The position numbers and the translations under genes were made by a program. The notes beneath the pieces are model-generated. The model saw only the letters and a list, made by a program, of their open reading frames with translations, had not been told where the DNA came from and made no database searches. Positions 5,185 through 33,491 of a DNA stretch of 64,000 bases are shown here, one piece after another. The stretch spans positions 2,741,171 to 2,805,170 of the forward strand of contig NZ_OZ243102.1 of the NCBI RefSeq assembly GCF_965212185.1. The letters are read 5' to 3'. Source of the DNA: Ekhidna sp. (GTDB lineage Bacteria > Bacteroidota > Bacteroidia > Cytophagales > Cyclobacteriaceae). Each line of letters opens with the position of its first letter. Positions within the stretch are counted from its first letter, which is position 1.

Positions 5185-5261
5185 AGGTAGAATGCTAATT
5201 ATGAGAATTTTGACCGCTCATACAATAACTAGCTTTTCAATTTGGTAATAATAATTAAGCC

Positions 5262-5286
5262 CCCCGACACGTCAGGGGGCTCATTC
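5262..5286 (-). terminator. Rho-independent terminator downstream of ftsZ (end of the dcw operon).
   Basis: On the minus strand, GAGCCCCCTGACGTGTCGGGGGGC is followed by a TTAATTATT U-rich tract. Confidence 0.55.
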
Positions 5287-5464
5287 TTGGCAGAATGCCG
5301 GAACAAGTCCAGCTACCCTAACTTTTGGGTCAGGGCATGTATGACTAACACCTACTGTTAACCATTTTTTTGCTCACAACTACTTATTATTTGTAGTCAT
5401 GAAATCCCGATGCTTCGCCTACCTAAAGGCAGAATAGGTCGGGATGGATTAAAAGCCATGGCTT

Positions 5465-7024
5465 TTAATCCACATTATCATGTAAGAATTTATTATTACC
5501 TAATATCTGATTCTCTTCATTCAGATTGAATTTTGAAATGTTTCGCTCCGAAGAGTGTGGAACATTTTGAAGTTTGACCTTTTTTCGTTCATAAGCAGGT
5601 ACATCTAGACGTTCTTTGAATTCCTCAGTTGGCATTTCAAACTTCTTGTTATCAAACATTGCTTCACGCTCTGCTCGTTCTTGTGCCAATCGCACTTGCT
5701 TAGAGCTAGGAGAAGCATGAAATGCATCAGCAATATCTACCTCATCTTCATGTACTTCTTCCTCTTCGTCGTTTTCAAATGCATTCGTGAAATCGAACTC
5801 GAAAGAAGACTGCTCGGAAGGTTTCTTGCTTCGTTGTTCTTCCTCTTCTACTTCTCTTTTGATTTCATCTTTTAAAGAGCTGAATTCATAATTCCAGTCT
5901 TCAACGTCTTCTTTGTCGCTTTCATCTTCAATCTCAAACATGAAATCTGAAGTATTGCCTCGCTTTTTAGTATCATCAATCTCTTTCTGGGAAAGCAAGT
6001 CGAATCGTTTGGCTTCTTCATCTTTTGAGATGTATTCACCCTCTTCATCAACTTTACCAAAACCAGTGGCGATCACTGTCACTCGGATATTCTCACCCAG
6101 TGAACTATCAACACCGTGACCGAAGATTACCTCAGCATTGTCTCCGGCATATTCCTGAATATAATCTGTTATATCAGTCAATTCATCCATTTGTAGTTCA
6201 GCTTCCTCTCCTGAGATGATGGAAAGCAAAATTTTCTCTGCACCATAAATGTCCTGCTGATTCAACAATGGGGAGTTAAGTGCTTCTTCTGCAGCTCTTC
6301 TTGCTCTGTTGTCACCGATCGTTTTAGCCGATCCCATGACCGCAGGACCTGCACCCTTCATTACGGTTTTAACATCTTCGAAATCTACATTTACATAGCC
6401 GGGAACGGTAATGATCTCAGCTATGCCCTTTGCTGCTGTGGTTAATACATTGTCAGCCTGACCGAATGCTTCGCTGATGGAAAGATTTCCATAAATCTCT
6501 CTCAGTTTATCATTCATAATAACAAGGACTGTATCGCAGTACTTTTTAAGTTCTTTGATACCATCCTCCGCAGCTTTCATTTTTTTCTTACCCTCAAAAG
6601 CAAATGGAGCAGTTACAATACCCACGGTGAGGATATCGAGTTCACTTGCTACCTGTGCAATAACAGGGGCTGCACCAGTACCGGTACCACCACCCATTCC
6701 GGCTGTTATGAAGATCATTTTCGTGTCTTGCGAGAGTAGGTCACGAATCTCTTCTTTACTTTCGATTGCGGCATTTTTGCCTCTTTCAGGATTTGCTCCT
6801 GCACCTAACCCACTGGTCAGGTTTGTTCCGATTTGTAGCTTACTTGGAACCGCACTGCTCTCTAGAGCCTGATGGTCCGTATTGCAAACCACAAATTCTA
6901 CATCCCGGATTCCCAGGCTGTACATGTGATTAACAGCGTTGCTGCCGCCACCACCAACACCCACCACCTTGATGATGGATTTATGATGTGACGGTAAGTC
7001 GAATTGATACATATTTTCTGCCAT
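5465..7024 (-). CDS. ftsZ: Cell division GTPase FtsZ with a long acidic C-terminal linker.
   Basis: GVGGGGSNAVNHM and GGGTGTGAAPVIA tubulin signature motifs; D/E-rich tail of ~200 aa. Confidence 0.97.
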   Translation of the reverse strand: MAENMYQFDLPSHHKSIIKVVGVGGGGSNAVNHMYSLGIRDVEFVVCNTDHQALESSAVPSKLQIGTNLTSGLGAGANPERGKNAAIESKEEIRDLLSQDTKMIFITAGMGGGTGTGAAPVIAQVASELDILTVGIVTAPFAFEGKKKMKAAEDGIKELKKYCDTVLVIMNDKLREIYGNLSISEAFGQADNVLTTAAKGIAEIITVPGYVNVDFEDVKTVMKGAGPAVMGSAKTIGDNRARRAAEEALNSPLLNQQDIYGAEKILLSIISGEEAELQMDELTDITDYIQEYAGDNAEVIFGHGVDSSLGENIRVTVIATGFGKVDEEGEYISKDEEAKRFDLLSQKEIDDTKKRGNTSDFMFEIEDESDKEDVEDWNYEFSSLKDEIKREVEEEEQRSKKPSEQSSFEFDFTNAFENDEEEEVHEDEVDIADAFHASPSSKQVRLAQERAEREAMFDNKKFEMPTEEFKERLDVPAYERKKVKLQNVPHSSERNISKFNLNEENQILGNNKFLHDNVD

Positions 7025-7051
7025 AATTATATTATTTAAAGTCCACAGTTA

Positions 7052-7072
7052 TTTAGTCGACAGTCGACTAAA
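7052..7072. repeat. GTCGAC-based palindromic element TTTAGTCGACAGTCGACTAAA in the ftsZ-ftsA spacer.
   Basis: Perfect palindrome seen directly; a member of a four-copy family in the dcw spacers. Confidence 0.6.
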
Positions 7073-7085
7073 TGTTTGTTGACAA

Positions 7086-8381
7086 TTAATTAATCTTATC
7101 ATCAAAATCGTCAATTAAAAGACCTTTTGTTTTCTCCAAAATGTTGGAAAAGAACTTATTGCCTTGTTTTATTTTTTTCTTTCCTTCTCCTTTGAAAGAA
7201 GGCGCTTCTGAGTATCTAGCCTCACGAATATCTAATGCCTTAAATCCAGAAAGAACCAAACCTACGGTTGTTGCAAACATTGGACTCTTGGCTGCATCAA
7301 CCTTTGACTTACCCAAGTGCTCATTTGGATAGCCTATGCGTGTGTCTAGTCCGGTCATGTATTCAAACAACTGGCTCAGATTGGTTAACTGTGAGCCACC
7401 ACCTGTGACTACTATCCCAGCAGCAAGCTTCTTGTTGTATCCAGAGCTTATAATCTCTGTATGAACAAGCTCAATGATCTCTTCCATCCTCGCCTCTATA
7501 ATGTGCGCTAGGTTTTTAATAGAAATCTCTTTTGGAGGTCGATTTCTCAAACCAGGAATAGAGACGATTTCATTTGGGCTAGCTTCCTCAGAAATGGCCT
7601 TGCCAAACTTAGTTTTCAGTAATTCCGCCTGATGTTCCATCACCATGCAACCTTGTTTGATGTCTGAAGTGATAATGTTTCCACCAAATGGAATCACAGC
7701 TGTATGGCGAATGATATTGTCATAGAAAACAGCTACATCCGTAGTGCCACCACCTATATCAACCAAGCATACACCTGCTTCTTTCTCCTCATCGCTTAAC
7801 ACAGATAAGCTGGACGCGAGTGGTTCCAAAATGAGATTCTCAATCTGGAGCCCAGCCTTTTTCACACACTTGTTTATGTTGTTAATGGCGTTGGTTTGTG
7901 CGGTGATTATATGGAAGTCAGCTTCCAGCTTCACGCCTGTCATTCCAACCGGGTCCATGATGCCATCTTCATAGTCCACAATGTAGTCTTGAGGCATCAC
8001 GTGAATAATTTCACTACCTGGAGGAGTAACAATGCGATGCATATCGCTATTGAGGCGAGTTAGATCCTCAATCGTAATCTCACCATCTTTATCTTCTCGG
8101 GTAATACCTCCGTGGTGTACAGCACTCTTAATATGCTGCCCGGCAATTCCCACATTTACGACTCCAATATCGATACCTGACTGATCACTAGCTTCAGCTA
8201 TTGCTTTTTCAATAGCCCTGACCGTTTTATCAATGTTTGTTACAATACCTCGGATCACACCATCAGATACCGCCTTGCCCATGCCGAGTATCTCTAGTTT
8301 TCCGTATTCATTTTTCTTACCTACAATGGCACAAATCTTTGTGGTGCCAATGTCTAGTCCAACGATGATTTTATCCTCCAT
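7086..8381 (-). CDS. ftsA: Cell division protein FtsA (actin-like ATPase).
   Basis: N-terminus MEDKIIVGLDIGTTKICAIVG; actin-fold motifs; position between ftsQ and ftsZ. Confidence 0.95.
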   Translation of the reverse strand: MEDKIIVGLDIGTTKICAIVGKKNEYGKLEILGMGKAVSDGVIRGIVTNIDKTVRAIEKAIAEASDQSGIDIGVVNVGIAGQHIKSAVHHGGITREDKDGEITIEDLTRLNSDMHRIVTPPGSEIIHVMPQDYIVDYEDGIMDPVGMTGVKLEADFHIITAQTNAINNINKCVKKAGLQIENLILEPLASSLSVLSDEEKEAGVCLVDIGGGTTDVAVFYDNIIRHTAVIPFGGNIITSDIKQGCMVMEHQAELLKTKFGKAISEEASPNEIVSIPGLRNRPPKEISIKNLAHIIEARMEEIIELVHTEIISSGYNKKLAAGIVVTGGGSQLTNLSQLFEYMTGLDTRIGYPNEHLGKSKVDAAKSPMFATTVGLVLSGFKALDIREARYSEAPSFKGEGKKKIKQGNKFFSNILEKTKGLLIDDFDDKIN

Positions 8382-8437
8382 AATTTCTTTATTTCTCGGT
8401 GATTATTCTATTTCGATTGATGAAAAACACCCCTATA

Positions 8438-8500
8438 GTCCCCTCAAGGGGACAATTGTCTCTAGAACTGATTCCCCCTTTGAAGGGGGTGAGGGGGATG
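8438..8500. repeat. Two adjacent C-run/G-run hairpins (GTCCCCTCAAGGGGAC and CCCCCTTTGAAGGGGG) plus a GACAATTGTC palindrome in the ftsQ-ftsA spacer.
   Basis: Inverted repeats seen directly. Similar CCCCC...GGGGG hairpins recur at 21159-21174 and 25743-25760. Confidence 0.45.
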
Positions 8501-8522
8501 TTATATGCCAAAATGTTTTGCA

Positions 8523-9281
8523 TTATTCACAAATAATTTGATTCTCAAACTTCAGATTTACCCGATCATAGGTATTCCAACCTTTCTTGGGTAAAATCTC
8601 TTTGTAGAAAGTCATCAACTTTGAAAACTTTCTTTCTAAATCCTCAGGATGGCCAAACTCTACAACCTGCTTCGTTACCTGTGGATACATTTCAATTTCT
8701 CCATCCTTTTTAATGAAGATATGTGCAATCTGGGCTTTCCAGAATTTATCATTTTCAATGAATGTGAGTAAATCATAGACTTGTTTGCCGTACTTACTTT
8801 CACTTAAATTCTTCTCCCACATAAACTCAAACTCCGTTTCCATTAGTGGGACTCTTGCGGTGTGCTTTGCATTGACAGGTAGTACTCTTCCTTCCGAGTC
8901 AATGTATTTATCTTTCTTTCCATCAATGAAGAGTCTTGCAATGGGCTTGCTTTGCTCAACCTTGACATTAAGCTTGCCCTTTAAGTCTCGATATACTTGA
9001 GCATCTTTCACGAATGGATTCAATTCCACCCGTTCCTCAAGCACTTTTGGATCCAACTTACCCATCTCTACACCGATTACATAGTCTGCACTTTTATCTG
9101 TCATGAGATCAATAACCTCTAATTGGTCGGTAAAGAAATTACCCTCTTGATCAGTAATCTCCACCTCAATTTCTTCAATGGATCGACTCTTATTTTTTAT
9201 TCCTGCGAAAGTGATCAACGTCAACAGCAGCAATCCACTGAAAGAGTAGATAAGAATATTTTTCTTTTCTTCTTTACTCAT
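8523..9281 (-). CDS. ftsQ: Cell division protein FtsQ-like (single N-terminal TM plus POTRA-like domain).
   Basis: Position between murC and ftsA; TM segment ILIYSFSGLLLLTLITFAGI; 8-nt overlap with the murC start. Confidence 0.8.
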   Translation of the reverse strand: MSKEEKKNILIYSFSGLLLLTLITFAGIKNKSRSIEEIEVEITDQEGNFFTDQLEVIDLMTDKSADYVIGVEMGKLDPKVLEERVELNPFVKDAQVYRDLKGKLNVKVEQSKPIARLFIDGKKDKYIDSEGRVLPVNAKHTARVPLMETEFEFMWEKNLSESKYGKQVYDLLTFIENDKFWKAQIAHIFIKKDGEIEMYPQVTKQVVEFGHPEDLERKFSKLMTFYKEILPKKGWNTYDRVNLKFENQIICE

Positions 9282-10668
9282 TGTCCTCGCTTTTTAGGTT
9301 GAACTTATTTTTCATGTATTCAGCGATCTTTGGCACTTCCCGATCGATATCACCGGCACCAAGAGTCACTACTATGTCCAGATTTCGATTTTCGAGTTCA
9401 TCAATTAAATGCTCTTTCGAAACCATTACTTTCTTCTCATTCTCCATTAGATCAAAAATGGACTTTGACGACACTCCTTCAATGGGTTCCTCTCTAGCCG
9501 GATAGATATCCAAAAGGATTACTTCGTCTGCCTTATCCAATGCTTCTGCAAATCCCTTCTTAAAATCATTGGTGCGAGAATAAAGATGCGGCTGAAAAAT
9601 CGCTGTGATCTTTCGTTTTCCTGCAAGGGACCTAACTGATTTTAAAAATGCATTGATCTCTTCAGGATGATGCGCATAATCGTCAATCAATGTGGCCTGA
9701 GGACTTCTGAAGACATACTCAAACCTTCTCTTAACACCTTTATACGATCTCATTATCTTTCTTATCTCGCGCCCTTCCATTCCCATATCTACCGCAACTG
9801 TAATTGCCGCAAGTGCATTTTCTACGTTATGGTAACCAGGGAACTCAAGATGAACATCTGAGATTTTTTCCATACCGTATCGGTAGGTAAATACAAATGC
9901 ACCATTAACAATTCGCAGAGCGTCAGCAATAGCGTCACCATTTCGAATTGCATAAGAGATGTATTTATTACCCGGATTGATTTTGAATCCTGCTTCAGAA
10001 TGCATCAATACTTTGCCGTCCTTAGGTGTTTTCTTTACGAACTCTTCATACGTATCCAACATGGCCGTCTCGTCTCCATAAATATCCAAATGATCAGGAT
10101 CCAATGAAGTGATGATGGTATAGTTCGGATTTAACTTCATGAAGGATCGATCATATTCGTCTGCTTCCACAACGACTGGCGCATTTTCATCTCCAATGAT
10201 GAGGTTGGAGCCTGTATTGGCCATAATCCCTCCAACAAATGCAGAACACCCTTTTCTTGAGTGACTCAAAAGGTGAGCAATCATGGAAGTGGTTGTTGTC
10301 TTTCCGTGAGTACCGGCCACAGCAATCGTAAAATGGTTCTCAGTGATCATACCCAGTACTTCAGACCGCTTCATTACAGTAAAGCCATTATCGTTGAAGT
10401 AGTTAAACTCCAGATGATCTTTTGGAATAGCTGGTGTATAGACAATTAGTGTTCCATCTCTCTCAAGAAATTTATCCTCAATCAAATCCAGCTGATCTTC
10501 ATAATGAACGTTAATTCCCTCTTCGATGAGCTGTTTGGTTAAATCTGATTCTGTTTTATCATAGCCTGCGACAGTTTTACCTTTCGCATGAAACCAACGA
10601 GCCAATGCACTCATTCCGATACCACCGATACCAATAAAATAGGCGTTATTTACTTCGATGAGTTTCAT
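9274..10668 (-). CDS. murC: UDP-N-acetylmuramate--L-alanine ligase MurC.
   Basis: FIGIGGIGMSALA and GTHGKTTTTSM Mur ligase motifs. Confidence 0.95.
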   Translation of the reverse strand: MKLIEVNNAYFIGIGGIGMSALARWFHAKGKTVAGYDKTESDLTKQLIEEGINVHYEDQLDLIEDKFLERDGTLIVYTPAIPKDHLEFNYFNDNGFTVMKRSEVLGMITENHFTIAVAGTHGKTTTTSMIAHLLSHSRKGCSAFVGGIMANTGSNLIIGDENAPVVVEADEYDRSFMKLNPNYTIITSLDPDHLDIYGDETAMLDTYEEFVKKTPKDGKVLMHSEAGFKINPGNKYISYAIRNGDAIADALRIVNGAFVFTYRYGMEKISDVHLEFPGYHNVENALAAITVAVDMGMEGREIRKIMRSYKGVKRRFEYVFRSPQATLIDDYAHHPEEINAFLKSVRSLAGKRKITAIFQPHLYSRTNDFKKGFAEALDKADEVILLDIYPAREEPIEGVSSKSIFDLMENEKKVMVSKEHLIDELENRNLDIVVTLGAGDIDREVPKIAEYMKNKFNLKSEDNE

Positions 10669-10735
10669 TGAATCAGACGCATTTTTAGTTGAAATAGAAC
10701 TTCAAATGCAGCTAACAGCTGTCTAATTATACTGC

Positions 10736-10764
10736 ACTGTCGACAGTCGACAGTCGACAGCCTC
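10736..10764. repeat. Three tandem GTCGACA heptads (CTGTCGACAGTCGACAGTCGACAGCC) in the murC-murG spacer.
   Basis: Seen directly; same family as 7052, 16055 and 19689. Confidence 0.6.
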
Positions 10765-10816
10765 AGGGAAGTAAATAGAGATAAATTGATTGGTCGATAT
10801 ATGGATCCTATATTCT

Positions 10817-11899
10817 TCATTTCTCCACCAATTTCACCACTTCGTTTGCTATATCAATGGCAGCATTTTCATGAGCCATAGCACTTATATTTTTTGACAG
10901 TTTTTGCTGTCGATCTTTATCTTTCAATAGCGCAATCGCCTCATCGATTAACTTATTCATCGCTTCTTTATCATCCACCATTTCAGCGGCTTCATGTGCT
11001 ACTAAAGCCTTTGCATTTATGGTTTGATGGTCCTCTGCAACATTGGGTGAAGGGACTAAAATCGAAGGTTTACCAGTCAGCATCAGCTCTGCAATCGAAA
11101 GTGCTCCTGCTCTCGATACCACTACATCTGCACATGCATATGCAAAGTCTATTTGAAAAATGAAGTCCTTAAGAACCACTTTGCTATCCAAGTCACCAGC
11201 GCGTTTTTCCATTTCCTCATGATAAAACCCACCACATTGCCAGATCAACTGAATGTCTTCATTTTTTAATTTTCCCAAACCCGCAAGGGCGCTTTCATTC
11301 AATGTTCTCGCTCCTAAGCTTCCTCCAATAATTAGGAGAGTTGGCTTGAATTCTTCTAAATCAAAATGCTTAAATGCTTCCGTTTTCCTATTTGGATTTA
11401 ATTTGATCGTTTTCCTTACCGGATTACCTGTTACAACCAGTTTCTCTGCCGGGAAATATTTTTCCATACCATCATGGGCCACACAGATCGTTCGTGCCGA
11501 TTTGGCTAACCACTTGTTTGTTAGGCCTGCATATGAATTTTGTTCCTGAATCAAAGTAGGAATACCTTTTTTTCCAGCCACATATAAGAGCGGTCCGCTT
11601 GCATATCCACCAACTCCTACCACCACATCGGGATTAAATTTTTTAATCAGTCTGGATGCTTGTTTTAGGCTAGATAGTAACTTAAAAGGAAACATGAGGT
11701 TATCAGCCGAAAGTTTTCGTTGGATACCACTGATCCATAATCCTTCAATCTCAAAACCTGCTTCAGGAACCTTTTTCATCTCCATCTTTCCCTTTGCTCC
11801 TACGAACAAGATTTCTACAGATTGAAGCATATCCTTCAAAGCTTGGGCAATGGAAATAGCTGGATAGATGTGGCCGCCTGTGCCACCACCACTAATCAT
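10817..11899 (-). CDS. murG: Undecaprenyldiphospho-muramoylpentapeptide beta-N-acetylglucosaminyltransferase MurG.
   Basis: N-terminus MISGGGTGGHIYPAISIA; GT28 architecture. Confidence 0.95.
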   Translation of the reverse strand: MISGGGTGGHIYPAISIAQALKDMLQSVEILFVGAKGKMEMKKVPEAGFEIEGLWISGIQRKLSADNLMFPFKLLSSLKQASRLIKKFNPDVVVGVGGYASGPLLYVAGKKGIPTLIQEQNSYAGLTNKWLAKSARTICVAHDGMEKYFPAEKLVVTGNPVRKTIKLNPNRKTEAFKHFDLEEFKPTLLIIGGSLGARTLNESALAGLGKLKNEDIQLIWQCGGFYHEEMEKRAGDLDSKVVLKDFIFQIDFAYACADVVVSRAGALSIAELMLTGKPSILVPSPNVAEDHQTINAKALVAHEAAEMVDDKEAMNKLIDEAIALLKDKDRQQKLSKNISAMAHENAAIDIANEVVKLVEK

Positions 11900-11925
11900 A
11901 ATGCGATATGTTCTTTCCTGCTCGA

Positions 11926-13077
11926 TTACGCTGCTTCTTTATATTGATTCCCTATCGTACCTCCGAAATTGTCTATCTCACCTCGGCTCACGCTTAATAT
12001 GATGCCTAGTGCCACTCCTGCAAATAGCTGTGAGGTTCCTCCCATACTTATGAAGGGTAATGTCAGTCCTGTAACTGGTCCCAAGCCAACAGCAACACCC
12101 ATATTAACCAGTGCTTGTATCACAAGTGCAAAACTCAGTCCGGCTGAAAGCAATCCACCATAAGCTCGATCATTTTGTTCTGCGGCTTTCATCCCTCTAT
12201 ACAATAATGCCAGGTAAAGGAAAAGAATTGTGACTCCTCCAATAAGCCCGTACTCTTCTAAAATGATTGCATAAATGAAATCTGAATATGGATGAGGTAA
12301 AAAATTTCTTTGATCACTTTGCCCGGGACCTTTCCCAATCACCCCCCCTGAGGCAATAGCAATATAAGCCTGCTTCGCCTGGTAAGGAGTTTCGTTATTG
12401 ATAAAGTCTTCAACTCTGGAGATTGCAGTTCCTCCTCTTTGTCCAACCATAAATGCAACCGATCCAAATGCTGAGCAGATCACCACGAGCATTGCTAAGT
12501 ACTTTACCGGAACTCTACCAATGAATAATACCAACATGCAAGTAAGGAAAAGCAGTATTGCTGATGAGAAGTTTGTTAGAGCAATCAATCCGCAGATTAA
12601 ACCAATCCAGAAAAGCATTGGAACAATCGCTTTTTGAAAATCATCAATGGATTGCTGACGCTTTGACAACATACTGGCTAGAGTAACCAATAAAGCTAGC
12701 TTAGCTAAATCTGATGGCTGAAATGCTTGATTGATGACAGGAATGGTCAACCAACGCGATGCTTCATTGATATTTGTACCAAATATCCATGTGAACAAAA
12801 GAAGAGGCACACTTAACCATAGGACTAAACGAGAAATCTTTGAATAGTATCGATAATCAATGCGGTGAGCTAACCATATGGCTATCAAACTAACCACTAC
12901 CAATACTGAATGCTTGACCAAGTAGTATTCAGTATTTCCATCCATCATTTTATAAGCCAGACTACCAGTGGCACTATAAACAACCAAAATACTGAATAGA
13001 GAAAGGATCAGAACGATGAACCAAATCACCGGGTCACCTTTCAGGTTTCGATATGCCCAATTTTTTATCTCGTTCAT
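11926..13077 (-). CDS. ftsW: Peptidoglycan glycosyltransferase FtsW (SEDS family).
   Basis: Multi-TM protein; SEDS C-terminal motif GLTLPFISMGGTS; position in the dcw cluster. Confidence 0.9.
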   Translation of the reverse strand: MNEIKNWAYRNLKGDPVIWFIVLILSLFSILVVYSATGSLAYKMMDGNTEYYLVKHSVLVVVSLIAIWLAHRIDYRYYSKISRLVLWLSVPLLLFTWIFGTNINEASRWLTIPVINQAFQPSDLAKLALLVTLASMLSKRQQSIDDFQKAIVPMLFWIGLICGLIALTNFSSAILLFLTCMLVLFIGRVPVKYLAMLVVICSAFGSVAFMVGQRGGTAISRVEDFINNETPYQAKQAYIAIASGGVIGKGPGQSDQRNFLPHPYSDFIYAIILEEYGLIGGVTILFLYLALLYRGMKAAEQNDRAYGGLLSAGLSFALVIQALVNMGVAVGLGPVTGLTLPFISMGGTSQLFAGVALGIILSVSRGEIDNFGGTIGNQYKEAA

Positions 13078-14453
13078 GCCTCTTTTGTTTTTAATGCCTT
13101 AGCGAGCTTATTTATTGCACGCTTAAATTTATCTCCACGATCCTCGTAATTATTAAATAGGTCAAAGCTGGCACACGCAGGAGAAAGCAAAACCACATCC
13201 CCTTCTTCGGCCCATTCATGTGCTTGCTTGATAGCTTCCTTAACAGATCCAACTTCTGCTATCATATTCAGTTTTGAACCAAAAAAATCAGTCAACCCGC
13301 TGTTATCCTTGCCCATACAAATGAGTCCCTTCACTTTATTCTTAACCAGTTTCTCTATCTGCGAATAATCGTTTCCTTTATCTACGCCTCCGGCTATCCA
13401 GATAATATTTCCTTTCACACCATCCAGGGCATAGTAGACAGAATCCACGTTGGTTGCCTTGGAATCATTGATGAATGCAGTTCCATCAATCTCTGTAACA
13501 AATTCGAGTCGATGGGGTGCGTTTTTAAAGTTCTTAAGCCCTTTCATCACACTTTCCATTGGAACATCCATGCAAAGCGAGCTCAAAACAGCCGCCATGC
13601 TGTTTACCATGTTATGCTTACCAATAAGTGAGATCTCTGAAACCGGAATTTGAAATTCTTCTGAGGCCTCTTTGTACTGGAAATTAAAAATCAGATGATC
13701 TTCTTCCAGATAAGCACTGAGTTTATTGTTATTTGAAGCAGTCATTGCAAACATGCTAGCTTCAATTTTTCTTCTGCTTATTTCTTCGGTGACAGGTTGC
13801 GAATCAGCACAGTAAACAAAAGCTTGCTCATTCGTTAGATTCTCAATGATTCGGAATTTTGAAGTGACGTACTTACTAAAATTGTACTCGTATCGATCCA
13901 GGTGATCTGGAGTAATATTCAGCAATACAGCAACATCAGGACGGAAATTTTGAATGCCATCCAATTGGAAACTGCTCACTTCCACTACATAATAGTGATA
14001 GCCTCCTTTCGCTACCAACCCTGCTAAACTTTTGCCCACATTGCCACCTAATGCTACCTTATATCCTGCCGTTTTTAACAGATGATAAGTCAGCATCGCT
14101 GTGGTCGTTTTGCCATTGGTTCCAGTAATCGCGATGACTTTAGCCTTTTCAATAAATCTGTATGCAAACTCTATTTCAGAAATGACTGAAATACCTTTAG
14201 TGACTATTTTTTTGACCAATGGTGCAGAGTCAGGAATACCAGGACTCTTTACAACAATAGAAGCATTCAAAATCAATTCTTCTGAATGTCCTCCTTCTTC
14301 AAAATCAATCTTCTGACCTTTGAGCGTTCTTCTGCGCTCAGCAGCCAGGTTTCCTCCATCAGAAAGGAATACTTCATAGCCCTTTTGACAAGCAAGTATA
14401 GCAGCGCCAACGCCACTTTCTCCACCGCCCAATATGACTATGCGTTCTTTCAT
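13074..14453 (-). CDS. murD: UDP-N-acetylmuramoylalanine--D-glutamate ligase MurD.
   Basis: MKERIVILGGGESGVGAAIL and ITGTNGKTTTA motifs. Confidence 0.95.
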   Translation of the reverse strand: MKERIVILGGGESGVGAAILACQKGYEVFLSDGGNLAAERRRTLKGQKIDFEEGGHSEELILNASIVVKSPGIPDSAPLVKKIVTKGISVISEIEFAYRFIEKAKVIAITGTNGKTTTAMLTYHLLKTAGYKVALGGNVGKSLAGLVAKGGYHYYVVEVSSFQLDGIQNFRPDVAVLLNITPDHLDRYEYNFSKYVTSKFRIIENLTNEQAFVYCADSQPVTEEISRRKIEASMFAMTASNNNKLSAYLEEDHLIFNFQYKEASEEFQIPVSEISLIGKHNMVNSMAAVLSSLCMDVPMESVMKGLKNFKNAPHRLEFVTEIDGTAFINDSKATNVDSVYYALDGVKGNIIWIAGGVDKGNDYSQIEKLVKNKVKGLICMGKDNSGLTDFFGSKLNMIAEVGSVKEAIKQAHEWAEEGDVVLLSPACASFDLFNNYEDRGDKFKRAINKLAKALKTKEA

Positions 14454-14821
14454 TATTCTTCGTCTTTTACTTTTTTGTCAATTATTGCATCGAAACACTT
14501 AGAGTAAATAGACATTAGGTCATATCCATCCTTTAAGAAATCATTGATTAGGCTGATTTTTTGCTTCTTATTAGCCATTTCAAGCTGATCTAAAATGAAG
14601 AGTACCTCATCGGTTTCATCTTCCAATCGTCCCAAAATCTGATTAAATACCATTTCTGAAGGAGCTTTTAGCAGCTTAAGAAATAAATCATCAATCTTTC
14701 GGGCACATCTGATAAGCATTGATGTGGCTTGCACTAAGGTCCCAGATGGGATCAACTCAGAAAGCTGCACGGAGCTCTTCTGGAATTTTTCGTTTAGTTC
14801 ATGAATTTGCGTTACTGTCAT
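14453..14821 (-). CDS. Hypothetical 122-aa all-helical protein inserted between mraY and murD, translationally coupled to both.
   Basis: ORF track. Its start overlaps the mraY stop and its stop overlaps the murD start. No TM segment and no recognisable motif. Confidence 0.55.
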   Translation of the reverse strand: MTVTQIHELNEKFQKSSVQLSELIPSGTLVQATSMLIRCARKIDDLFLKLLKAPSEMVFNQILGRLEDETDEVLFILDQLEMANKKQKISLINDFLKDGYDLMSIYSKCFDAIIDKKVKDEE

Positions 14822-15996
14822 TATCTGATTTTTAGAGTTGCTAGTGTGAAAATGGCTAAGAGAATTCCCACAGTCCAGAATCGCGCGACGATCTTGGCCT
14901 CATGAAGTCCCTTCTTTTGATAATGGTGATGGAGTGGTGACATCAAAAAGATGCGCCTTCCTTCACCATATTTCTTTTTGGTATACTTGAAATAAGACAC
15001 CTGTATGATCACCGATAAATTCTCGATAACCAGAATCCCGCATAATATCGGAATCAATAATTCTTTTCTAATAACCAATGCTAAAACCGCGATGATCCCA
15101 CCCAGTGAAAGGCTGCCGGTATCTCCCATGAAAACCTGCGCCGGGAACGCATTGTACCAAAGGAAACCGATGCATGCACCTACAAAGGCGGTACAGAAAA
15201 TCACCAGTTCTCCAGAGTTTGGTATGAACATGATGTTGAGATAGTCAGCGAAAATTGCATTACCTGATAGGTAGGCTAGAACTGCTAATGTCAAACCAAT
15301 GATCGCACACGTTCCGGCTGCTAAGCCATCTAACCCATCGGTAATATTTGCTCCGTTTGAAACTGCGGTGACGATAAATATTACCACCAGCACATATAAT
15401 ACCCATGAATATTCAGATAGAAATTCTGGCATTAACCAGTCATAATTAAACTCATTGTTTGCTACGAATGGTATCGTGGTTAGTAGCGTGTTTTCATCCT
15501 TAAAGGCTTCTCCCGAAAAATCCCTGACTACAATGTCATCATTGTAAACCATCACAAGGCCAACGATAAGTCCTAGCCCTATTTGACCCACAACCTTGAA
15601 CTTTCCTCTAAGTCCTTCTTTGTTCTTCTTTTTTACTTTGAGATAGTCATCTAAAAAGCCAATAGAGCCCATCCACAGAGCAGAGATGATCAATAGAATA
15701 ATATAAATGTTGTCCAGATTAGCAAAGAGCAGTGTTGGGATAACAATGGCTGAAATAATGATAATTCCTCCCATTGTAGGTGTTCCCTTTTTCTCCATCT
15801 GACCATCAAGACCAAGGTCTCTAATTGATTCGCCCAGCTGATATCTTCTAAGCATTTCGATGAGATACTTGCCGAAGGTTATGGTGATTAATAGGGATAG
15901 CAATGCTGCCATGCCCGCTCGGAACGAGATGTACTGAAACAATCCCGCTCCCGGGAAGTCTATTTGATTGAGATATTCGAAGAGATAGTTTAACAT
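14821..15996 (-). CDS. mraY: Phospho-N-acetylmuramoyl-pentapeptide transferase MraY.
   Basis: 10-TM protein with MraY/WecA motifs (DDxxK-like [15 protein letters not shown]; HHH near C-terminus). Confidence 0.95.
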
Positions 15997-16054
15997 TACT
16001 CTTGCAATATTTTATCATCCAAACAAATCCGCAATCGCATATAAATCGAATAAA

Positions 16055-16080
16055 CAGTCGACAGTTGACAGTCGACAGTT
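16055..16080. repeat. Heptad repeat CAGTCGACAGTTGACAGTCGACAGTT in the mraY-murE spacer.
   Basis: Seen directly; same family as 7052, 10736 and 19689. Confidence 0.6.
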
Positions 16081-16126
16081 ATAAGATTTATACCTTTGCC
16101 TTCGATATTTAGCTTAAATCCATTCA

Positions 16127-17578
16127 TCAATTCAATAGCTCTTTTAAAACCTCCTTGTCATCAAAGTGATGTCTCACACCATTTATCTCCTGATAGGTTT
16201 CATGGCCTTTTCCTGCTACCAAAATGATATCCTCATCATTGGCCAGATTACAGGCTGTCCGTATCGCTTCCTTTCGATCTTCAATAACCATCACATTCCT
16301 TTCCTTTGATTTTGGAATTCCCGTTCGCATATCTTCCAAAATCTGTTTCGGATCTTCTGTTCTGGGATTATCAGATGTCAAAATGATTTTATCACTAAAC
16401 TGTGCAGCTATACCTGCCATTTTTGGACGCTTGGTCTTATCTCTATCTCCACCACAGCCGACCACAGTTACCAGTAATTCGTTCTTTGTTCTTAATTTAT
16501 CAATCGTTTGCAAAACATTCTCCAATGCATCCGGCGTATGTGCATAATCCACAATTGCCATTACATTGGTCGTGTTTTCCACCTTTTCAAATCGACCACT
16601 TGCACCAGTGGTCGTTGACAAACCACTCAATACCTCTTCTTTCTCTTCCTCGAGCAATAGCGCAACAGCATATGCAGTAAGGAGATTATAAGCATTGAAT
16701 TCTCCGATGAGCTTGAACCACACATCTACCCCATCAAAATTTAGCTCTAAGCCCTGCAGTGTATCATGAATGATCCTGACTTTAAAATCAGCCATGGACC
16801 GGATAGCCATTCTGTTCCTTTCAGCTTTGGTATTTTGAAGCATCACCATTCCTCTCTTGTCATCTACATTGACTAAAGCGAATGCATCTGATGAAAGACC
16901 ATCGAACAGAAGCTTTTTTGCTGCGATGTACTCGTCAAAAGTTTTGTGATAATCCAGGTGATCATGGGAAATATTGGTAAATACTCCTCCTGAGAAATGT
17001 ATACCTGCAACTCGATTTTGAACCAGGGCATGGGAGCTTACCTCCATGAATGCGTGCGTACAACCACCTTCAACCATTTCGGCCAAAAGTTGGTTAAGCT
17101 GTACTGCATCCGGAGTAGTAAAGCTGGCATTTAAGATCTTATGGTTAATCTTGTTCTCTACGGTTGAAAGTAAGCCCACCGAATAGCCCAGGTTTTGAAA
17201 AAGCTCAAACAGCAACGTTGCACAAGTGGTCTTACCGTTAGTGCCGGTGATGCCTACAAGCTTTAATTTCTCTGATGGTCGTCCATGAAAATTTGATGCA
17301 ATGATACCAAGTGCCTCCGCTGAATTGTCTGTTTGAACAATCGTAACACCTTTATCTAAATCAGAAAGAATTTGCTCACATACAATAACTTTCGCTCCTT
17401 TCTCGATTGCGGTATCGATGAAATCATGCCCATCCACAGTCAGTCCCTTCACCGCCACAAACAGGAATCCTTTCTCAACTTTTCGTGAATCAAAAGTCAC
17501 ACCTGCTACTTCTTCATCACGATTTCCAGTGATGGACTTTAGCGAAACGCCAAACAATATGTCTTTCAGCGTTTGCAT
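16127..17578 (-). CDS. murE: UDP-N-acetylmuramoyl-L-alanyl-D-glutamate--2,6-diaminopimelate ligase MurE.
   Basis: GITGTNGKTT motif and the DNPRTED motif typical of MurE. Confidence 0.95.
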   Translation of the reverse strand: MQTLKDILFGVSLKSITGNRDEEVAGVTFDSRKVEKGFLFVAVKGLTVDGHDFIDTAIEKGAKVIVCEQILSDLDKGVTIVQTDNSAEALGIIASNFHGRPSEKLKLVGITGTNGKTTCATLLFELFQNLGYSVGLLSTVENKINHKILNASFTTPDAVQLNQLLAEMVEGGCTHAFMEVSSHALVQNRVAGIHFSGGVFTNISHDHLDYHKTFDEYIAAKKLLFDGLSSDAFALVNVDDKRGMVMLQNTKAERNRMAIRSMADFKVRIIHDTLQGLELNFDGVDVWFKLIGEFNAYNLLTAYAVALLLEEEKEEVLSGLSTTTGASGRFEKVENTTNVMAIVDYAHTPDALENVLQTIDKLRTKNELLVTVVGCGGDRDKTKRPKMAGIAAQFSDKIILTSDNPRTEDPKQILEDMRTGIPKSKERNVMVIEDRKEAIRTACNLANDEDIILVAGKGHETYQEINGVRHHFDDKEVLKELLN

Positions 17579-19677
17579 CAGCTTAATTGAAGTTTAATGG
17601 TTGAACCTTTTGATAGTCTTCCTCCCGGAGACATGGATTGGGTGGCCACTCGTCCTCTACCTTTTACTTGTACTTCTAACCCTAAATTTTCTAGCACGTA
17701 GATCGCATCACGTAATGTCATTCCACGAACATCCGGCACCACCTCATATTTCACTTTATTTCCTTTCCAATAAACAGCATCGTTTATGACATTTGTTTTC
17801 ACCCATTCTGATTCAGTTTCAGAATGATTGGATATTCCAAACTCGTTGCAAATCATTGTCAACTCATCACGCTTGCCCGCTTTGATGTATGGAAAGACCC
17901 CTGTGATGTAAGAGCGCTCCTGTGTTCCAACTTCATGCATATCAAGCTCTAATGAATAGATCTTATCGGCTATTTCTTTAAAGACCGGAGCAGATACATC
18001 GCTACCGTAGATTTGATACCCTTTTGGATTATCAATAACTACAATACAGCTGTATCTAGGAGCTTCCGCTGGGAAATATCCAGCAAATGATGTGTAGTAT
18101 TCTTTAACGTAACGACCGTTTTTTACCTTTTTAGCCGTACCTGTTTTACCAGCAATTTTGTAGTGACTGTAATTAATGTTTTGAGCGGTACCACGCTCTA
18201 CAACACCTTCCATCATCAACTTAACCTTTCTTAAAGTCTCCTTTGAAGCGATTCGATCATTGATGATTTCCGTATCAAACTCATCAACCATTCGATCCGC
18301 TTTCATGACACCTTTGACAATCATGGGTTTCACCATTTTGCCATCGTTTGCTACCGCATTGTAAAGCGTCAACATTTGCAGTGGCGTCATCTTTAGCTCA
18401 TAGCCATGAGACATCCAAGGCAAACTCACTCCACTCCAGGTACTATCTGATGGATCTTTAATGTAGGGTTTACCCTCACCAACCATTTGAAAATCGAGTG
18501 GTTCATGAAGGTTCATGTGCTTTAAGTAATCAATAAATTTCTCTGGATTGTTGCCGAAATAATGAGAGATCAACTTTGCCACACCAATGTTTGAAGATTT
18601 CTCAAAAACCTCCTGAATAGTCAGCTTACCAAAACCATCAGGCTTATGATCACGCATGGTTTTGTCAAAAAACTCAAGCTTGCCATCACCGGTATCAATC
18701 GAATCATTGAGCTTAATATCAGTTTCCTCCAGCAAAGCAATCATACTTGCCAACTTGAAGGTAGAGCCCGGCTCCCTTGAACCCTGACTGCCCACTGCAT
18801 AATTGTATCTTTCATAGTAATCGCCATCACTGTTTCTGCTGAGATTGGAAATGGCTTTGATCTCCCCGGTCTGAACCTCCATTACTACTGCTACTCCATA
18901 ATCTGCATCATGCTTTTGTAGTTCGTTTAATAAAGCTGACTCAGTTACATCTTGAAGATCTACATTAATGGTTGTCTGGATATCATAACCATCGACTGGG
19001 CGTCTTTCAGTGCCATCATAAATGGGTCTCCAGCCACCACCAGCCATTTTTTGATAAAGTCCTTTCCCGCTAACTCCAGCAAGTTGTTTATTGAAACTAT
19101 ACTCCAGTCCCACAGTCCCACGATCATTGGCATTGACACTGCCGATCGTGCGTATACCTAAATGGGAGAAAGGCAGAAAGCGTTTTTCTACCTTTTCAAA
19201 AATGACTCCTCCTTTTAGCCTACCCTCTTTAAAAAGCGGCCAGTTCTCCATATTCTTTTTATCCTGGTAGCCGATCTCCTTGCGATTAAGAGTCAGGTAG
19301 CGCCGACCCTTCTTTCGAGCATTATCGATCTTCCGTTTGTATTGGGTAGGAGTTAAATCTCCATAATACCTGGAAAGCAGATAACACAGAGAATCAATGT
19401 TGTTTTTATAAAGGCCATTTGATGGTAAATACGGATCCAGCGCCAATCGATAGAATGGAAGTGACGTAGCTAGCAAACTACCATCATCAGCATAGATGTT
19501 GCCACGAGTTGCTTTTACGTTCATCACCTGAAGACCCAGCGTCTCACCCATGCTTCTCCACTTGTCGCCTTCTACGTATTGAACTTTAGCAATACGAAAA
19601 ATCACCGCTCCTGCTACCAGAAAGGTTAGCAAAAAGGCGATACGCACACGTAATACTATGTCTCTTTTGATGCTCAT
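17578..19677 (-). CDS. ftsI: Penicillin-binding protein 3 / FtsI transpeptidase with a C-terminal PASTA domain.
   Basis: N-terminal TM; STFK, SNIG and KTGTA active-site motifs; C-terminal PASTA-like YEVVPDVRGMTLRDAIYVLENLGLEV. Confidence 0.9.
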   Translation of the reverse strand: MSIKRDIVLRVRIAFLLTFLVAGAVIFRIAKVQYVEGDKWRSMGETLGLQVMNVKATRGNIYADDGSLLATSLPFYRLALDPYLPSNGLYKNNIDSLCYLLSRYYGDLTPTQYKRKIDNARKKGRRYLTLNRKEIGYQDKKNMENWPLFKEGRLKGGVIFEKVEKRFLPFSHLGIRTIGSVNANDRGTVGLEYSFNKQLAGVSGKGLYQKMAGGGWRPIYDGTERRPVDGYDIQTTINVDLQDVTESALLNELQKHDADYGVAVVMEVQTGEIKAISNLSRNSDGDYYERYNYAVGSQGSREPGSTFKLASMIALLEETDIKLNDSIDTGDGKLEFFDKTMRDHKPDGFGKLTIQEVFEKSSNIGVAKLISHYFGNNPEKFIDYLKHMNLHEPLDFQMVGEGKPYIKDPSDSTWSGVSLPWMSHGYELKMTPLQMLTLYNAVANDGKMVKPMIVKGVMKADRMVDEFDTEIINDRIASKETLRKVKLMMEGVVERGTAQNINYSHYKIAGKTGTAKKVKNGRYVKEYYTSFAGYFPAEAPRYSCIVVIDNPKGYQIYGSDVSAPVFKEIADKIYSLELDMHEVGTQERSYITGVFPYIKAGKRDELTMICNEFGISNHSETESEWVKTNVINDAVYWKGNKVKYEVVPDVRGMTLRDAIYVLENLGLEVQVKGRGRVATQSMSPGGRLSKGSTIKLQLS

Positions 19678-19688
19678 TTTTTCAAGTC

Positions 19689-19737
19689 AACAGTCGAAAG
19701 TTTTCAGTCGACTGCCAAGCTGTGGACTGTCGACTAA
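19689..19737. repeat. Dispersed CAGTCGA/GTCGAC repeats (CAGTCGAAAGTTTTCAGTCGACTGCCAAGCTGTGGACTGTCGAC) in the ftsI-ftsL spacer.
   Basis: Seen directly; same family as 7052, 10736 and 16055. Confidence 0.5.
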
Positions 19738-19766
19738 TAAGTATTTTGATATTTTTTGCACCGCTA

Positions 19767-20189
19767 TTAATCATCGAATTCTTCTACACTTCTAATTAAG
19801 ACGGGTAACTCCTTACTCTCTTTTAAGCCGAGCTCTGCCGCTCGTTTTGCCACCTCTGACTGTTTGCTTTCATACATGAAATCTGCTTTCAGGGTAGTAT
19901 AATCCGCTCTGAGATCTTCAACTTCTGTTTCCAGGTGGTTGATGTCTCTGATTTTCTTCTCTGCGTAATGGCGGTTGCCGATATACAGCAGACATAAGAA
20001 TGCCAGAAATAGAATTTGGGGAAGAAAACGCACGTGTATCACCTCACTCATGGAAGTGTCCATGCGTAGAAAGCGATTGATGAGACGGAATAAGCCTCCT
20101 CGCTCTTCTCTTTGGGGTAATTTGTAGGTGTTCTTCATCTTTTTAAAGTTTGAAATTTGAAGCTGGGAGTTTGAAGGAATCACTTCCAC
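19767..20189 (-). CDS. ftsL: FtsL-like cell division protein (small bitopic protein; the true start may be an internal Met).
   Basis: Position between rsmH and ftsI; single TM FLPQILFLAFLCLLYIG followed by a coiled-coil-like region. Confidence 0.55.
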   Translation of the reverse strand: MEVIPSNSQLQISNFKKMKNTYKLPQREERGGLFRLINRFLRMDTSMSEVIHVRFLPQILFLAFLCLLYIGNRHYAEKKIRDINHLETEVEDLRADYTTLKADFMYESKQSEVAKRAAELGLKESKELPVLIRSVEEFDD

Positions 20190-20200
20190 CTTCTAGCTTC

Positions 20201-21139
20201 CTACTTCACACTTCTTTTCTTGCCAATACGCAGCTTAGCGCTTCTCGCTCTGCTGTTTTTTTCAATTTCTGCCGCTGTGGGGATGATGGGCTTTCGGTTC
20301 ACCGGGTCTAACACCCTGATTGGATTCCCATAAAAGTCTTTTTCATCGACCCCTTTAATATTTCCTTTGTTTATGAAATTCTTGACTGGCCGGTCTTCCA
20401 ATGAGTGATAACTCATCACCACGAGTCTGCCTTCTGCCTTTAGCACCTCGCCTGCCTGTATCAAAAATTCCCTGAGTGCTTCCATCTCTTCATTTACCTC
20501 AATCCGAATGGCCTGAAAGACCTGTGCGAGGTATTTGAGATCTCGACCTCTCGGAGCATGTTTCAGCGCAATGGCTTTCAATTGCTCGTTGGTCTCGATG
20601 GGCTGGTTCATTCGGAAATTCACAATCTCTCTTGCGAGTGTTCGCGCATTTCTGATTTCCCCGTACGCACTTAAAATATGTATCAGATCCTTTTCCTCGT
20701 ATTCGTTGACTATCTCCCTGGCGCTTTTTGCAGCGGCCTGATCCATACGCATATCCAACACACCTTCTGCCCTAATGGTGAATCCACGCGATGGTTCGTC
20801 AAACTGATGGGAGCTTACTCCCAAATCCGCCAGGATGCCATCTACTTCCGTGATGCCATGTAGTCTGAGGAATTTTTTCAGGTATCTGAAATTTGATTCA
20901 ATAAATGTGAAAGAACATTTTGTGCCCTCCTCCGCTAATGCTTCGGTGAGCCTATCGGCATTTTGTTCAGCATCTTTATCCTGATCAAAAGCAATGAGGT
21001 GGCCGGTAGTCAATTTGTCGAGTATTGCTTTGCTGTGACCGCCACCTCCAAAGGTCACATCCACGTATACTCCATCTGGTTTTATGTCCAGCCCGTCCAG
21101 GCATTCCTGCAACATGACCGGGTTGTGGTACTGACTCAT
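20201..21139 (-). CDS. rsmH: 16S rRNA (cytosine1402-N4)-methyltransferase RsmH (MraW).
   Basis: DVTFGGGGHS SAM-binding motif; position after mraZ. Confidence 0.95.
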   Translation of the reverse strand: MSQYHNPVMLQECLDGLDIKPDGVYVDVTFGGGGHSKAILDKLTTGHLIAFDQDKDAEQNADRLTEALAEEGTKCSFTFIESNFRYLKKFLRLHGITEVDGILADLGVSSHQFDEPSRGFTIRAEGVLDMRMDQAAAKSAREIVNEYEEKDLIHILSAYGEIRNARTLAREIVNFRMNQPIETNEQLKAIALKHAPRGRDLKYLAQVFQAIRIEVNEEMEALREFLIQAGEVLKAEGRLVVMSYHSLEDRPVKNFINKGNIKGVDEKDFYGNPIRVLDPVNRKPIIPTAAEIEKNSRARSAKLRIGKKRSVK

Positions 21140-21158
21140 GGTTTTTTCCTCCCCCTAA

Positions 21159-21174
21159 CCCCCTCCAGAGGGGG
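21159..21174. repeat. CCCCCTCCAGAGGGGG hairpin in the mraZ-rsmH spacer.
   Basis: Seen directly; related to the hairpins at 8474-8489 and 25743-25760. Confidence 0.4.
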
Positions 21175-21199
21175 AAATATTTCAGGCTTCATTACCAAA

Positions 21200-25420: not shown

Positions 25421-25514
25421 TGTCAATAAAACCTTAGAACAGTATTATGAAATGTGAATGAAAAAGTAAGGACATAAAAAAACCATCAACTAAGATGGCA
25501 TCAGTCAATTATCT

Positions 25515-33486: not shown

Positions 33487-33491
33487 GTTTG

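Follow-up and report, generated by a model that had tools for sequence, protein, structure and literature searches.

In a 64 kb stretch of the genome of Ekhidna sp. (contig NZ_OZ243102.1, positions 2,741,171 to 2,805,170), hereafter the window, four junctions within the division and cell-wall (dcw) gene cluster carry short tandem repeats built on the hexamer GTCGAC. They belong to a family of heptanucleotide repeats that extends across the genus, of which they are the local form, and represent a new variant within a published class. With a confidence somewhat better than even, we favour the view that they are hairpin fillers generated by slippage of seven-nucleotide units (heptads), and that they act in cis on the polycistronic dcw mRNA. 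Across the Ekhidna-type sequence surveyed, heptads phased on an ACU core are dcw-associated and biased in both strand and position.

Heptads at four junctions of the dcw cluster

The dcw cluster of the window is complete and lies on the minus strand in the order mraZ-rsmH-ftsL-ftsI-murE-mraY-orf122-murD-ftsW-murG-murC-ftsQ-ftsA-ftsZ, its gene names having been confirmed with NCBIfam. Heptads are borne by the spacers between ftsA and ftsZ (61 nt), murG and murC (148 nt), murE and mraY (130 nt), and ftsL and ftsI (89 nt). The original prediction had described GTCGAC heptads in these four spacers, and upon re-reading all four sites match that description, as follows.

7041..7083, minus strand: ftsA-ftsZ intercistronic hairpin, consisting of a core palindrome (7052-7072) and outer helices
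10732..10766, minus strand: murG-murC array, with three perfect GTCGACA units at 10739-10759
16040..16092, minus strand: murE-mraY array, which as mRNA is (ACUGUCG)(ACUGUCA)(ACUGUCG)ACUG
19681..19737, minus strand: ftsL-ftsI spacer arms, made of degenerate heptads in both orientations

Because the dcw genes are on the minus strand, the arrays are (ACUGUCG)n on the mRNA. The ftsA-ftsZ site (7052-7072) is a perfect 10+10 palindrome, TTTAGTCGAC-A-GTCGACTAAA, or UUUAGUCGAC-U-GUCGACUAAA as mRNA, and its spacer holds the strongest inverted repeat of the entire window; an unpaired A/U leader of 16 nt (7025-7040) separates the hairpin from the ftsZ AUG (7024). The murG-murC array, which sits approximately 65 nt upstream of the murC start, is scored by Tandem Repeats Finder (TRF) as period 7, 3.1 copies and 100 % match (10739-10760), and as mRNA it is laid out as a 5' arm CUGUCGAC, a loop UGUCGACU and a 3' arm GUCGACAG, with a CUG/CAG helix closing the structure on the outside. 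At murE-mraY, positions 16054-16080 comprise CAGTCGA-CAGTTGA-CAGTCGA-CAGTT (TRF period 7, 3.7 copies, 16054-16079), and an extended, imperfect hairpin encloses the array, its outer stem, UAUAAAUC/GAUUUAUA, being specific to the locus. Finally, the ftsL-ftsI spacer has a 5' arm of AGUC-type heptads (UUAGUCGACAGUCCACAG) and a 3' arm of GACU-type heptads (GACUGAA AACUUUC GACUGUU GACUUGA), the latter ending 3 nt before the ftsI AUG, with its last ACU 7 nt before that AUG. Taken together, the four loci mix the units GTCGACA, GTTGACA, GTCCACA, GTCAACA and GTCGAAA.

GTCGAC occurs 11 times in the window versus 4.5 times expected, a count reached in none of 100 shuffles, and nine of the 11 sites fall within the four dcw spacers. 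Strict period-7 arrays are limited to 10733-10764 and 16051-16081, and runs of at least three in-register ACT to 16056-16079 and 19685-19708 (four copies), both on the minus, i.e. sense, strand. The window has 20 same-strand spacers that are 25 nt long or more; heptads are present in four of the eight within dcw and in none of the 12 others, which bears out the earlier statement that other spacers lack them; one of those 12 (57348-57476) has three in-register ATT.

Register, strand and predicted folding of the ACU heptads

Register was assessed in seven genomes, whose 39 dcw spacers were scored for each of the 64 trinucleotides recurring at positions i, i+7 and i+14. Sense-strand ACT ranked first of the 64, with 20 in-register occurrences spread over 10 spacers, whereas periods 5, 6, 8 and 9 gave none, the antisense strand gave one and shuffles averaged 0.014; in these spacers, in-register triples were seen at period 7 only. 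A census of 12 genomes yielded 13 sense ACU-phased arrays, every one of which lies in a dcw spacer (6.6 kb in all); neither the 180 kb of coding sequence nor the 77.5 kb of non-dcw flanks has any, and the four antisense arrays found in spacers are partner arms. The sense arrays end 3-24 nt ahead of the next start codon in 12 of the 13 cases, a pattern that is evident in the window at ftsI and, in degenerate form, at ftsZ. The proposed tie to operon-internal dcw junctions thus holds within the genus, as ACU-phased heptads are confined to dcw spacers within the ~260 kb of Ekhidna-type sequence covered.

Folding was assessed on the sense RNA by thermodynamic prediction only, with z-scores calculated against shuffles. 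The ftsA-ftsZ hairpin has a predicted energy of -15.3 kcal/mol (z -4.4; 0/200 shuffles equally stable), the murG-murC core (10725-10775) one of -18.2 kcal/mol (z -3.4), the murE-mraY core one of -17.0 kcal/mol (z -4.3) and the whole ftsL-ftsI spacer, which has an 11-bp stem with one G.U pair, one of -19.1 kcal/mol (z -2.0). Because GTCGAC is its own complement, this flavour of heptad pairs with itself and is predicted to make especially strong stem-loops. The stems also extend past the shared heptads into flanks that are unique to each locus, i.e. UUUA/UAAA at ftsA-ftsZ, UAUAAAUC/GAUUUAUA at murE-mraY and CUG/CAG at murG-murC. In relatives, heptad spacers made of other units are predicted to form periodically bulged hairpins (z -2.0 to -3.8), followed by an unpaired A/U leader of 15-22 nt and the AUG.

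The start-proximal heptad arms are A/C-rich and G-poor, and because of this they fold poorly as mRNA, at +4 to +17 kcal/mol relative to their complement; CCCCC/GGGGG modules, a second kind of spacer filler considered below, show the opposite, i.e. a better fold on the sense strand than on the complement. The poor folding of the start-proximal arm fits with selection for an open initiation region downstream of the hairpin. Overall, sense and antisense folding do not differ significantly (Wilcoxon p = 0.11), the comparison being informative only when split by module type. Rfam 15 gave no match in 5000-22500 even at E <= 1, and its matches in the window at the gathering threshold are restricted to tRNAs and the SAM riboswitch. 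The tRNA genes, three in number, are at 32860-33563, and the riboswitch (RF00162, 60.5 bits) is at 25506-25617 on the minus strand.

Stem-loops at such junctions may alternatively be terminators or attenuators, or the arrays internal promoters, that divide the cluster into transcription units, a reading to which we give very little credence. A consensus scan does mark 16076-16057 (minus strand) as weakly terminator-like, along with 7050-7074 (plus strand), and GTCGACA or GTTGACA resembles a -35 hexamer. However, the stems at three of the four sites are not followed by a sense-strand U-tract, the counts of terminator- and promoter-like sites in the region do not exceed those of shuffles, the promoter consensus of the Bacteroidota is a different one, and the genes located downstream are essential.

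The same junctions in related genomes

The dcw clusters of eleven relatives (68-88 % MurG identity), among them Ekhidna lutea (L125), were compared with that of the window, as was one metagenome contig (L132), the single contig recovered by a metagenome scan anchored on the conserved 5' end of ftsZ. Three of the junctions vary as follows.

murG-murC: no spacer (ATGA overlap or abutting genes) in seven relatives (L121, L123, L124, L126, L127, L128, L129)
murG-murC: differing fillers of 94-148 nt in the window, E. lutea and L137, each flanked by duplicated ATGA
murE-mraY: 3-6 nt in L123 and L126; overlap in L129; 7 nt in L130
murE-mraY: CCCCC...GGGGG hairpin module instead of GTCGAC heptads in L121, E. 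lutea, L127, L128 and L137
ftsL-ftsI: overlapping genes in L123 (GTGA), L129, L130 and L131
ftsL-ftsI: a different filler in L121, L126, L127 and L137

To judge from this comparison, the spacers are insertions acquired separately in individual lineages, at junctions where the dcw genes would otherwise overlap or adjoin each other. GTCGAC heptads are common only to the ftsA-ftsZ spacers of the window, E. lutea and L137 and, in part, to the ftsL-ftsI spacers of the window and E. lutea, the window's ftsL-ftsI spacer being partly homologous to that of E. lutea. The murG-murC and murE-mraY copies, on the other hand, are found only in the window's lineage, and the GTCGAC unit therefore appears to have spread within the cluster recently. 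Other heptads in relatives include ACUCGAA/ACUCAAA before ftsZ, CUUCAAA before ftsL and UUACUAA before ftsA, as well as CAAGnnn...ACUUGAA as inverted arms. Arrays fade in relatives with MurG identity of <=73 %; one relative at 69 % has AGUC/GACU heptads as nested arms in its ftsQ-ftsA spacer. The unit of the window is AGUC fused to GACU, and is thus a self-complementary flavour of the genus-wide heptad family.

These differences bear on the possibility that the sites are operators, at which a dimeric regulator or nucleoid protein would recognize AGTCGAC-N-GTCGACT or GTCGAC boxes spaced by 7 bp and thereby coordinate the four junctions. Such a reading draws on the perfect palindrome at 7052-7072, on a hexamer that is gathered at four sites spanning 13 kb and is nearly absent from the remainder of the 64 kb, and on the binding of proteins to heptameric direct repeats in other systems, including the ctx promoter and the targets of SARP regulators. 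Yet, heptads at the same positions in relatives differ widely in sequence and thus have no one DNA motif in common; the strong strand bias and the nearness to start codons are indicative of RNA; the sites are within the operon and away from its promoter; and the likely MraZ boxes (GTGGGGGAAA, period 10) upstream of mraZ are unrelated. We therefore regard operators as very improbable. As to the three options offered in the original prediction, the evidence favours a blend of RNA hairpin and REP-like filler, in that the hairpins are predicted to fold and the spacers are inserted, and the regulator site is left without support.

The ftsA-ftsZ spacer of the GTCGAC type is 61 nt long in each of the three genomes that have it, with no closer strains among them. 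Its identity is 54/61 (0.89) between the window and E. lutea, 53/61 between the window and L137, and 60/61 between E. lutea and L137, and the ACUCGAA-type spacer has an identity of 0.96 between L121 and L123. Identity at third codon positions in the flanking ftsA and ftsZ is ~55-62 %. Given that identity is high within a type and only 0.5-0.6 between types, spacers are conserved within type and swapped wholesale between types. The ftsA-ftsZ copy would, on these grounds, be under purifying selection, and the murG-murC and murE-mraY copies, being recent, may be merely tolerated. Within six Ekhidna-type genomes, the first 120 nt of ftsZ (window 6905-7024) have a third-position identity of 0.82-1.00 in all pairs, versus ~0.5 further in, which points to nucleotide-level constraint on the 5' end of ftsZ as well. 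The final 60 nt of ftsA are also unusually similar between L121 and L123. A recombination patch is possible for the L121/L123 spacer; as a general explanation it was rejected, for it fails for the window and E. lutea, and the conservation of the ftsZ 5' end is common to all pairs.

The constant length of 61 nt also speaks against the arrays being phase-variable repeats, in which gain or loss of 7-nt units would switch the downstream genes. Although the arrays are indeed tandem 7-nt units, and heptanucleotide tracts drive phase variation in some pathogens, those of Ekhidna have only two to four units, mostly imperfect, and their targets would be essential housekeeping genes. We consider this extremely unlikely.

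Two further dcw spacers of the window carry the alternative module in place of heptads.

8382..8522, minus strand: ftsQ-ftsA spacer, CCCCC...GGGGG hairpin module, an alternative filler in a comparable position
21140..21199, minus strand: mraZ-rsmH spacer, CCCCC...GGGGG hairpin module (UUUCCCCCUCUGGAGGGGGUUAGGGGGAGG), an alternative filler

This CCCCC-loop-GGGGG module, which is often followed by a second GGGGG and GGGGGATGT and has no Rfam match, constitutes a second filler family that recurs in the dcw spacers of many relatives; it exists outside of dcw too (25743-25760), and a site lacking the second GGGGG, at 5261-5279, resembles a terminator after ftsZ. A third filler family, GTCATCCTGAGCnnnnnGAAGGATC / GTCATTCCGAA...TTCGGAATGAC, is present in the mraZ-rsmH, ftsL-ftsI and ftsQ-ftsA spacers of L121, L123, L125-L127 and L137, and is not above chance in the window. 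Many non-homologous inserted spacers have ATATC(G) 15-20 nt past the upstream stop codon; the sites in the window are 10796-10801, 16103-16108, 19748-19752 and 11904-11909, with a like position in relatives, and the sequence recurs at the matching position in the universally conserved 26-nt ftsW-murG spacer (TCGAAAAGGAAAGAACATATCGCATC). ATATCG is present in 14 of 68 spacers versus 1.8 expected. This recurrence suggests either that the fillers have a 5' module in common or that insertion is favoured at this point.

Two open reading frames (ORFs) also occupy dcw junctions. In L129, a relative at 77 % identity, a 121-aa ORF of the 23S_rRNA_IVP (four-helix-bundle) family is located between ftsA and ftsZ (L129:14551-15006), where it occupies the loop between heptad arms (5' arm TTATGAGTTGTGAGTTGCTGGTTGTGAG, 3' arm CAACTCGAAACTCAAAACTCAAAGACTT), a layout that may be likened to that of an rRNA intervening sequence with a stem cut by RNase III. 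The second, orf122 (14453-14821, minus strand), is a conserved 122-aa ORF that overlaps both of its flanking genes, mraY and murD. It is present in all Ekhidna-type relatives, with a 125-aa ORF at that position in L131, and is missing from L130, which has a 139-nt spacer there instead. No Pfam or NCBIfam match was found for orf122, and its assignment as a 23S-rRNA-IVP-type protein was rejected, since it has no similarity to the IVP protein of L129. Elsewhere in the window, a 315-bp tandem repeat (2.9 copies, 93 % match) is at 1509-2407.

Origin, candidate function and known repeat families

Outside of the genus, the 20-mer GTCGACAGTCGACAGTCGAC is found at a minimum of 120 loci (>=120) in a collection of species-representative genomes, the matches listed belonging to Acidobacteriota, Chloroflexota, Gemmatimonadota, Bacteroidota, Lentisphaerota and others, with several metagenome-assembled genomes (MAGs) having many contigs matched. 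These cross-phylum arrays decay to GTCCACA, GTTGACA, GTCAACA and GTCGTCA. Contact with dcw was seen in two among the 120 tract loci listed, which is roughly the chance expectation, so that the GTCGACA tract taken by itself does not qualify as a dcw element. Viral contigs account for three loci of the GTCGACA tract, versus one for CTCGAGA and none for GACGTCA, numbers that are too few to call GTCGACA special.

Other aspects of the tract merit mention. Runs of perfect units among the 120 loci listed have lengths of 3 (76 cases), 4 (48), 5 (2) and 6 (1), a distribution with a sharp cap and not a geometric tail. In AT-rich Bacteroidota MAGs (loci L003, L013, L058, L084, L086, L092 and L120), (GTCGACA)3-4 lies in frame within enzyme domains, encoding S-T-V-D-S-R-Q; the domains concerned are the MetH activation domain, homocysteine S-methyltransferase, PyrD, Fmt and UbiD. 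In MetH, the loop bearing the tract does not vary in length among homologues; one of these, 92 % identical and taken from another dataset, reads STVDGRQST. Single 7-nt slippage steps would frameshift the host genes. In Kiritimatiellae, Lentisphaeraceae and related MAG loci (L001, L012, L025, L099, L104, L110), a conserved GC-rich hairpin, GCGCGnnnnCGCGACGGA, directly follows the tract, suggesting that tract and hairpin form a longer composite repeat in those MAG genomes.

Within Ekhidna, the favoured account of slippage-generated fillers acting in cis would run as follows. Replication slippage of 7-nt units, combined with inverted duplication and the exchange of modules between spacers, would have given rise to arrays of the mRNA form (ACUnnnn)n, here (ACUGUCG)n, often preceded by a complementary (nnnnAGU)n arm. 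In the window's lineage, ancestral copies at ftsA-ftsZ and ftsL-ftsI would then have spread to murE-mraY and murG-murC. Presumably co-transcribed within the polycistronic dcw mRNA, each array would place a hairpin between two cistrons and, behind it, a leader that is unstructured, poor in G and phased on ACU as far as the start codon, and thereby set the initiation efficiency of ftsZ, ftsI, mraY and murC and/or the stability of the flanking mRNA. The setting would be a bacterium that, in keeping with the Bacteroidota in general, does without Shine-Dalgarno pairing, and in which the ancestral ATGA coupling has been broken.

A number of observations weigh against this account. Three of the four junctions have no spacer in close relatives, implying that the arrays are dispensable there, and the arrays are interchangeable with an unrelated CCCCC/GGGGG hairpin module. 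The murC and mraY arrays of the window are 55-65 nt upstream of the start codon, the dcw enrichment rests on ~260 kb and not on whole genomes, part of the ftsA-ftsZ conservation belongs to a generally constrained neighbourhood that includes the ftsZ 5' end, and the hairpins of the window and E. lutea differ in ways that are not evidently compensatory. In other phyla, moreover, the GTCGACA tract has the character of a generic repeat. Its arrays there show no orientation bias relative to start codons (29 versus 25), as judged with a home-made gene caller that cannot be relied upon in high-GC DNA, where none of the six frames of the tract is closed.

Several of these points would be accommodated if the arrays were neutral or selfish filler, that is, functionless slippage-prone or REP-like repeats that persist where they are harmless, such as the read-through spacers of a long operon, with the orientation and position biases reflecting which insertions are tolerated near a start codon. 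We hold this, the main rival, to be possible, though less likely than not. It is in line with the presence/absence and wholesale replacement of arrays between close species, with their being swappable with the CCCCC/GGGGG module, with the restriction of the murG-murC and murE-mraY copies to the window's lineage, and with the presence of the GTCGACA tract in unrelated phyla and contexts, even coding loops. It accounts less readily for an ftsA-ftsZ spacer that is far above synonymous-site conservation in three species, for an ACU that stays in register while the other four positions drift, for 13 sense versus four antisense spacer arrays, the antisense ones being partner arms, and for the lack of any array in the 77.5 kb of non-dcw DNA. 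Even if neutral, the arrays would still be an example of repeated colonization and module swapping at essential gene junctions.

At the other extreme, ACU heptads and their complementary arm could be a dedicated, hitherto unrecognized post-transcriptional signal of Shine-Dalgarno-less Bacteroidota that sets the stoichiometry of the division proteins (ftsL, ftsI, ftsA, ftsZ), which we deem unlikely. The signal might be an array on which an RNA-binding protein of the multi-OB-fold or cold-shock type docks, at ~7 nt per domain, or else a processing hairpin of the RNase III type, and the GTCGAC flavour would then count as its self-complementary form, newly extended to additional junctions. If correct, this would supply a function for heptanucleotide repeats (STRR, TAACTGA) that is testable in the culturable E. 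lutea. More generally, an effect of the arrays on translation or mRNA processing would reveal the way in which Bacteroidota adjust the expression of internal cistrons once translational coupling has been lost, and the genus offers a compact, comparable system of about a dozen orthologous junctions in a dozen genomes.

Among known systems, the MraZ boxes, which are G-rich direct repeats with ~10-bp spacing located upstream of mraZ, are like the heptads in being direct repeats associated with the dcw cluster. The heptads were rejected as MraZ boxes given their period of 7, their different sequence and their location inside the operon. A period-10 G-rich direct repeat, GTGGGGGAAA GTGGAGGAAA ATAGGAAAAG, that resembles MraZ operator boxes is present upstream of mraZ at 21693-21722 (minus strand). 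Since this repeat lies inside the listed mraZ ORF (GTG start 21727), the true start of mraZ is probably the ATG at 21643-21641; the family matches of the ORF begin at residues 29-32, consistent with that start.

Repetitive extragenic palindromes (REPs) and the bacterial interspersed mosaic elements (BIMEs) of enterobacteria are transcribed in mRNA, stabilize upstream mRNA segments and modulate neighbouring gene expression. Like them, the Ekhidna modules are short imperfect palindromes, with a predicted stem-loop, that reside between co-oriented genes of the same operon and are patchy between close relatives. REPs, however, have a conserved sequence of 35-40 nt, exist in hundreds of copies mobilized by RAYT transposases and are not tandem 7-nt repeats, whereas the four window copies share the heptad only and differ in their flanks, with no common consensus of 20-40 nt. 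Miniature inverted-repeat transposable elements are likewise not favoured, as there are no shared termini, and the ATGA duplication at murG-murC is explained by the keeping of stop and start codons; no target duplication is evident at murE-mraY or ftsL-ftsI.

The nearest likenesses are among heptanucleotide repeats. The short tandemly repeated repetitive (STRR) sequences of cyanobacteria, known since 1990, are, like the Ekhidna arrays, heptanucleotide, tandem, non-coding and multi-locus, and decay into related units. Their units CCCCAGT and CAACAGT are ACUGGGG and ACUGUUG on the other strand, which is near to ACUGUCG/ACUGUCA. STRR arrays are usually longer and are genome-wide in filamentous cyanobacteria, and we know of no description of dcw association, start-codon phasing or hairpin pairing for them.

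A literature search found the GTCGAC-heptad sequence in no paper. The original prediction's remark that no such element had been described for dcw clusters stands in so far as it concerns those clusters, but heptamer repeats upstream of start codons have been published (PMC4679880). According to that report (MacGregor 2015), TAACTGA direct repeats are mostly intergenic, in forward orientation and a few nucleotides from start codons, a pattern displayed by Maribeggiatoa and Flexibacter. Their hosts are marine Beggiatoaceae, cyanobacteria and five Bacteroidetes, one of these being the cytophagalean Flexibacter litoralis, and close relatives of the hosts have shorter spacers without repeats. Their function is given there as unknown, with ribosomal protein S1, cold-shock proteins and CsrA suggested as binders, and heptanucleotides are noted to rank first in abundance among the long simple repeats (5-11 nt) of most prokaryotic genomes, with polymerase slippage proposed as their source (Mrazek 2007, via PMC4679880). 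In Nostoc, the deletion of heptamer repeats is reported to alter reporter expression, by a mode left unresolved (bioRxiv 10.1101/2022.06.06.494920).

The Ekhidna arrays match this class in being 7-nt head-to-tail units, non-coding and multi-locus, with mixed units, placed in forward orientation just upstream of starts. TAACTGA repeats are likewise tandem, intergenic, mostly forward and near a start, with other heptamers mixed in; as mRNA they are (ACUGAUA)n, having ACUG in common with (ACUGUCG)n, and they too precede essential genes, their hosts being organisms in which Shine-Dalgarno sites are few; a translational role has been proposed. The differences are that TAACTGA is scattered over ~170 loci, whereas the Ekhidna arrays, in the sequence available, are concentrated in the dcw operon; that the Ekhidna unit is built on a palindrome, and hence its arrays are also predicted hairpins; and that paired inverted arms are the rule in Ekhidna. 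To what is known of this class, the Ekhidna arrays thus add a phase-locked ACU core that extends up to start codons on the mRNA strand, a systematic complementary arm, a link with dcw and an apparently selected copy before ftsZ.

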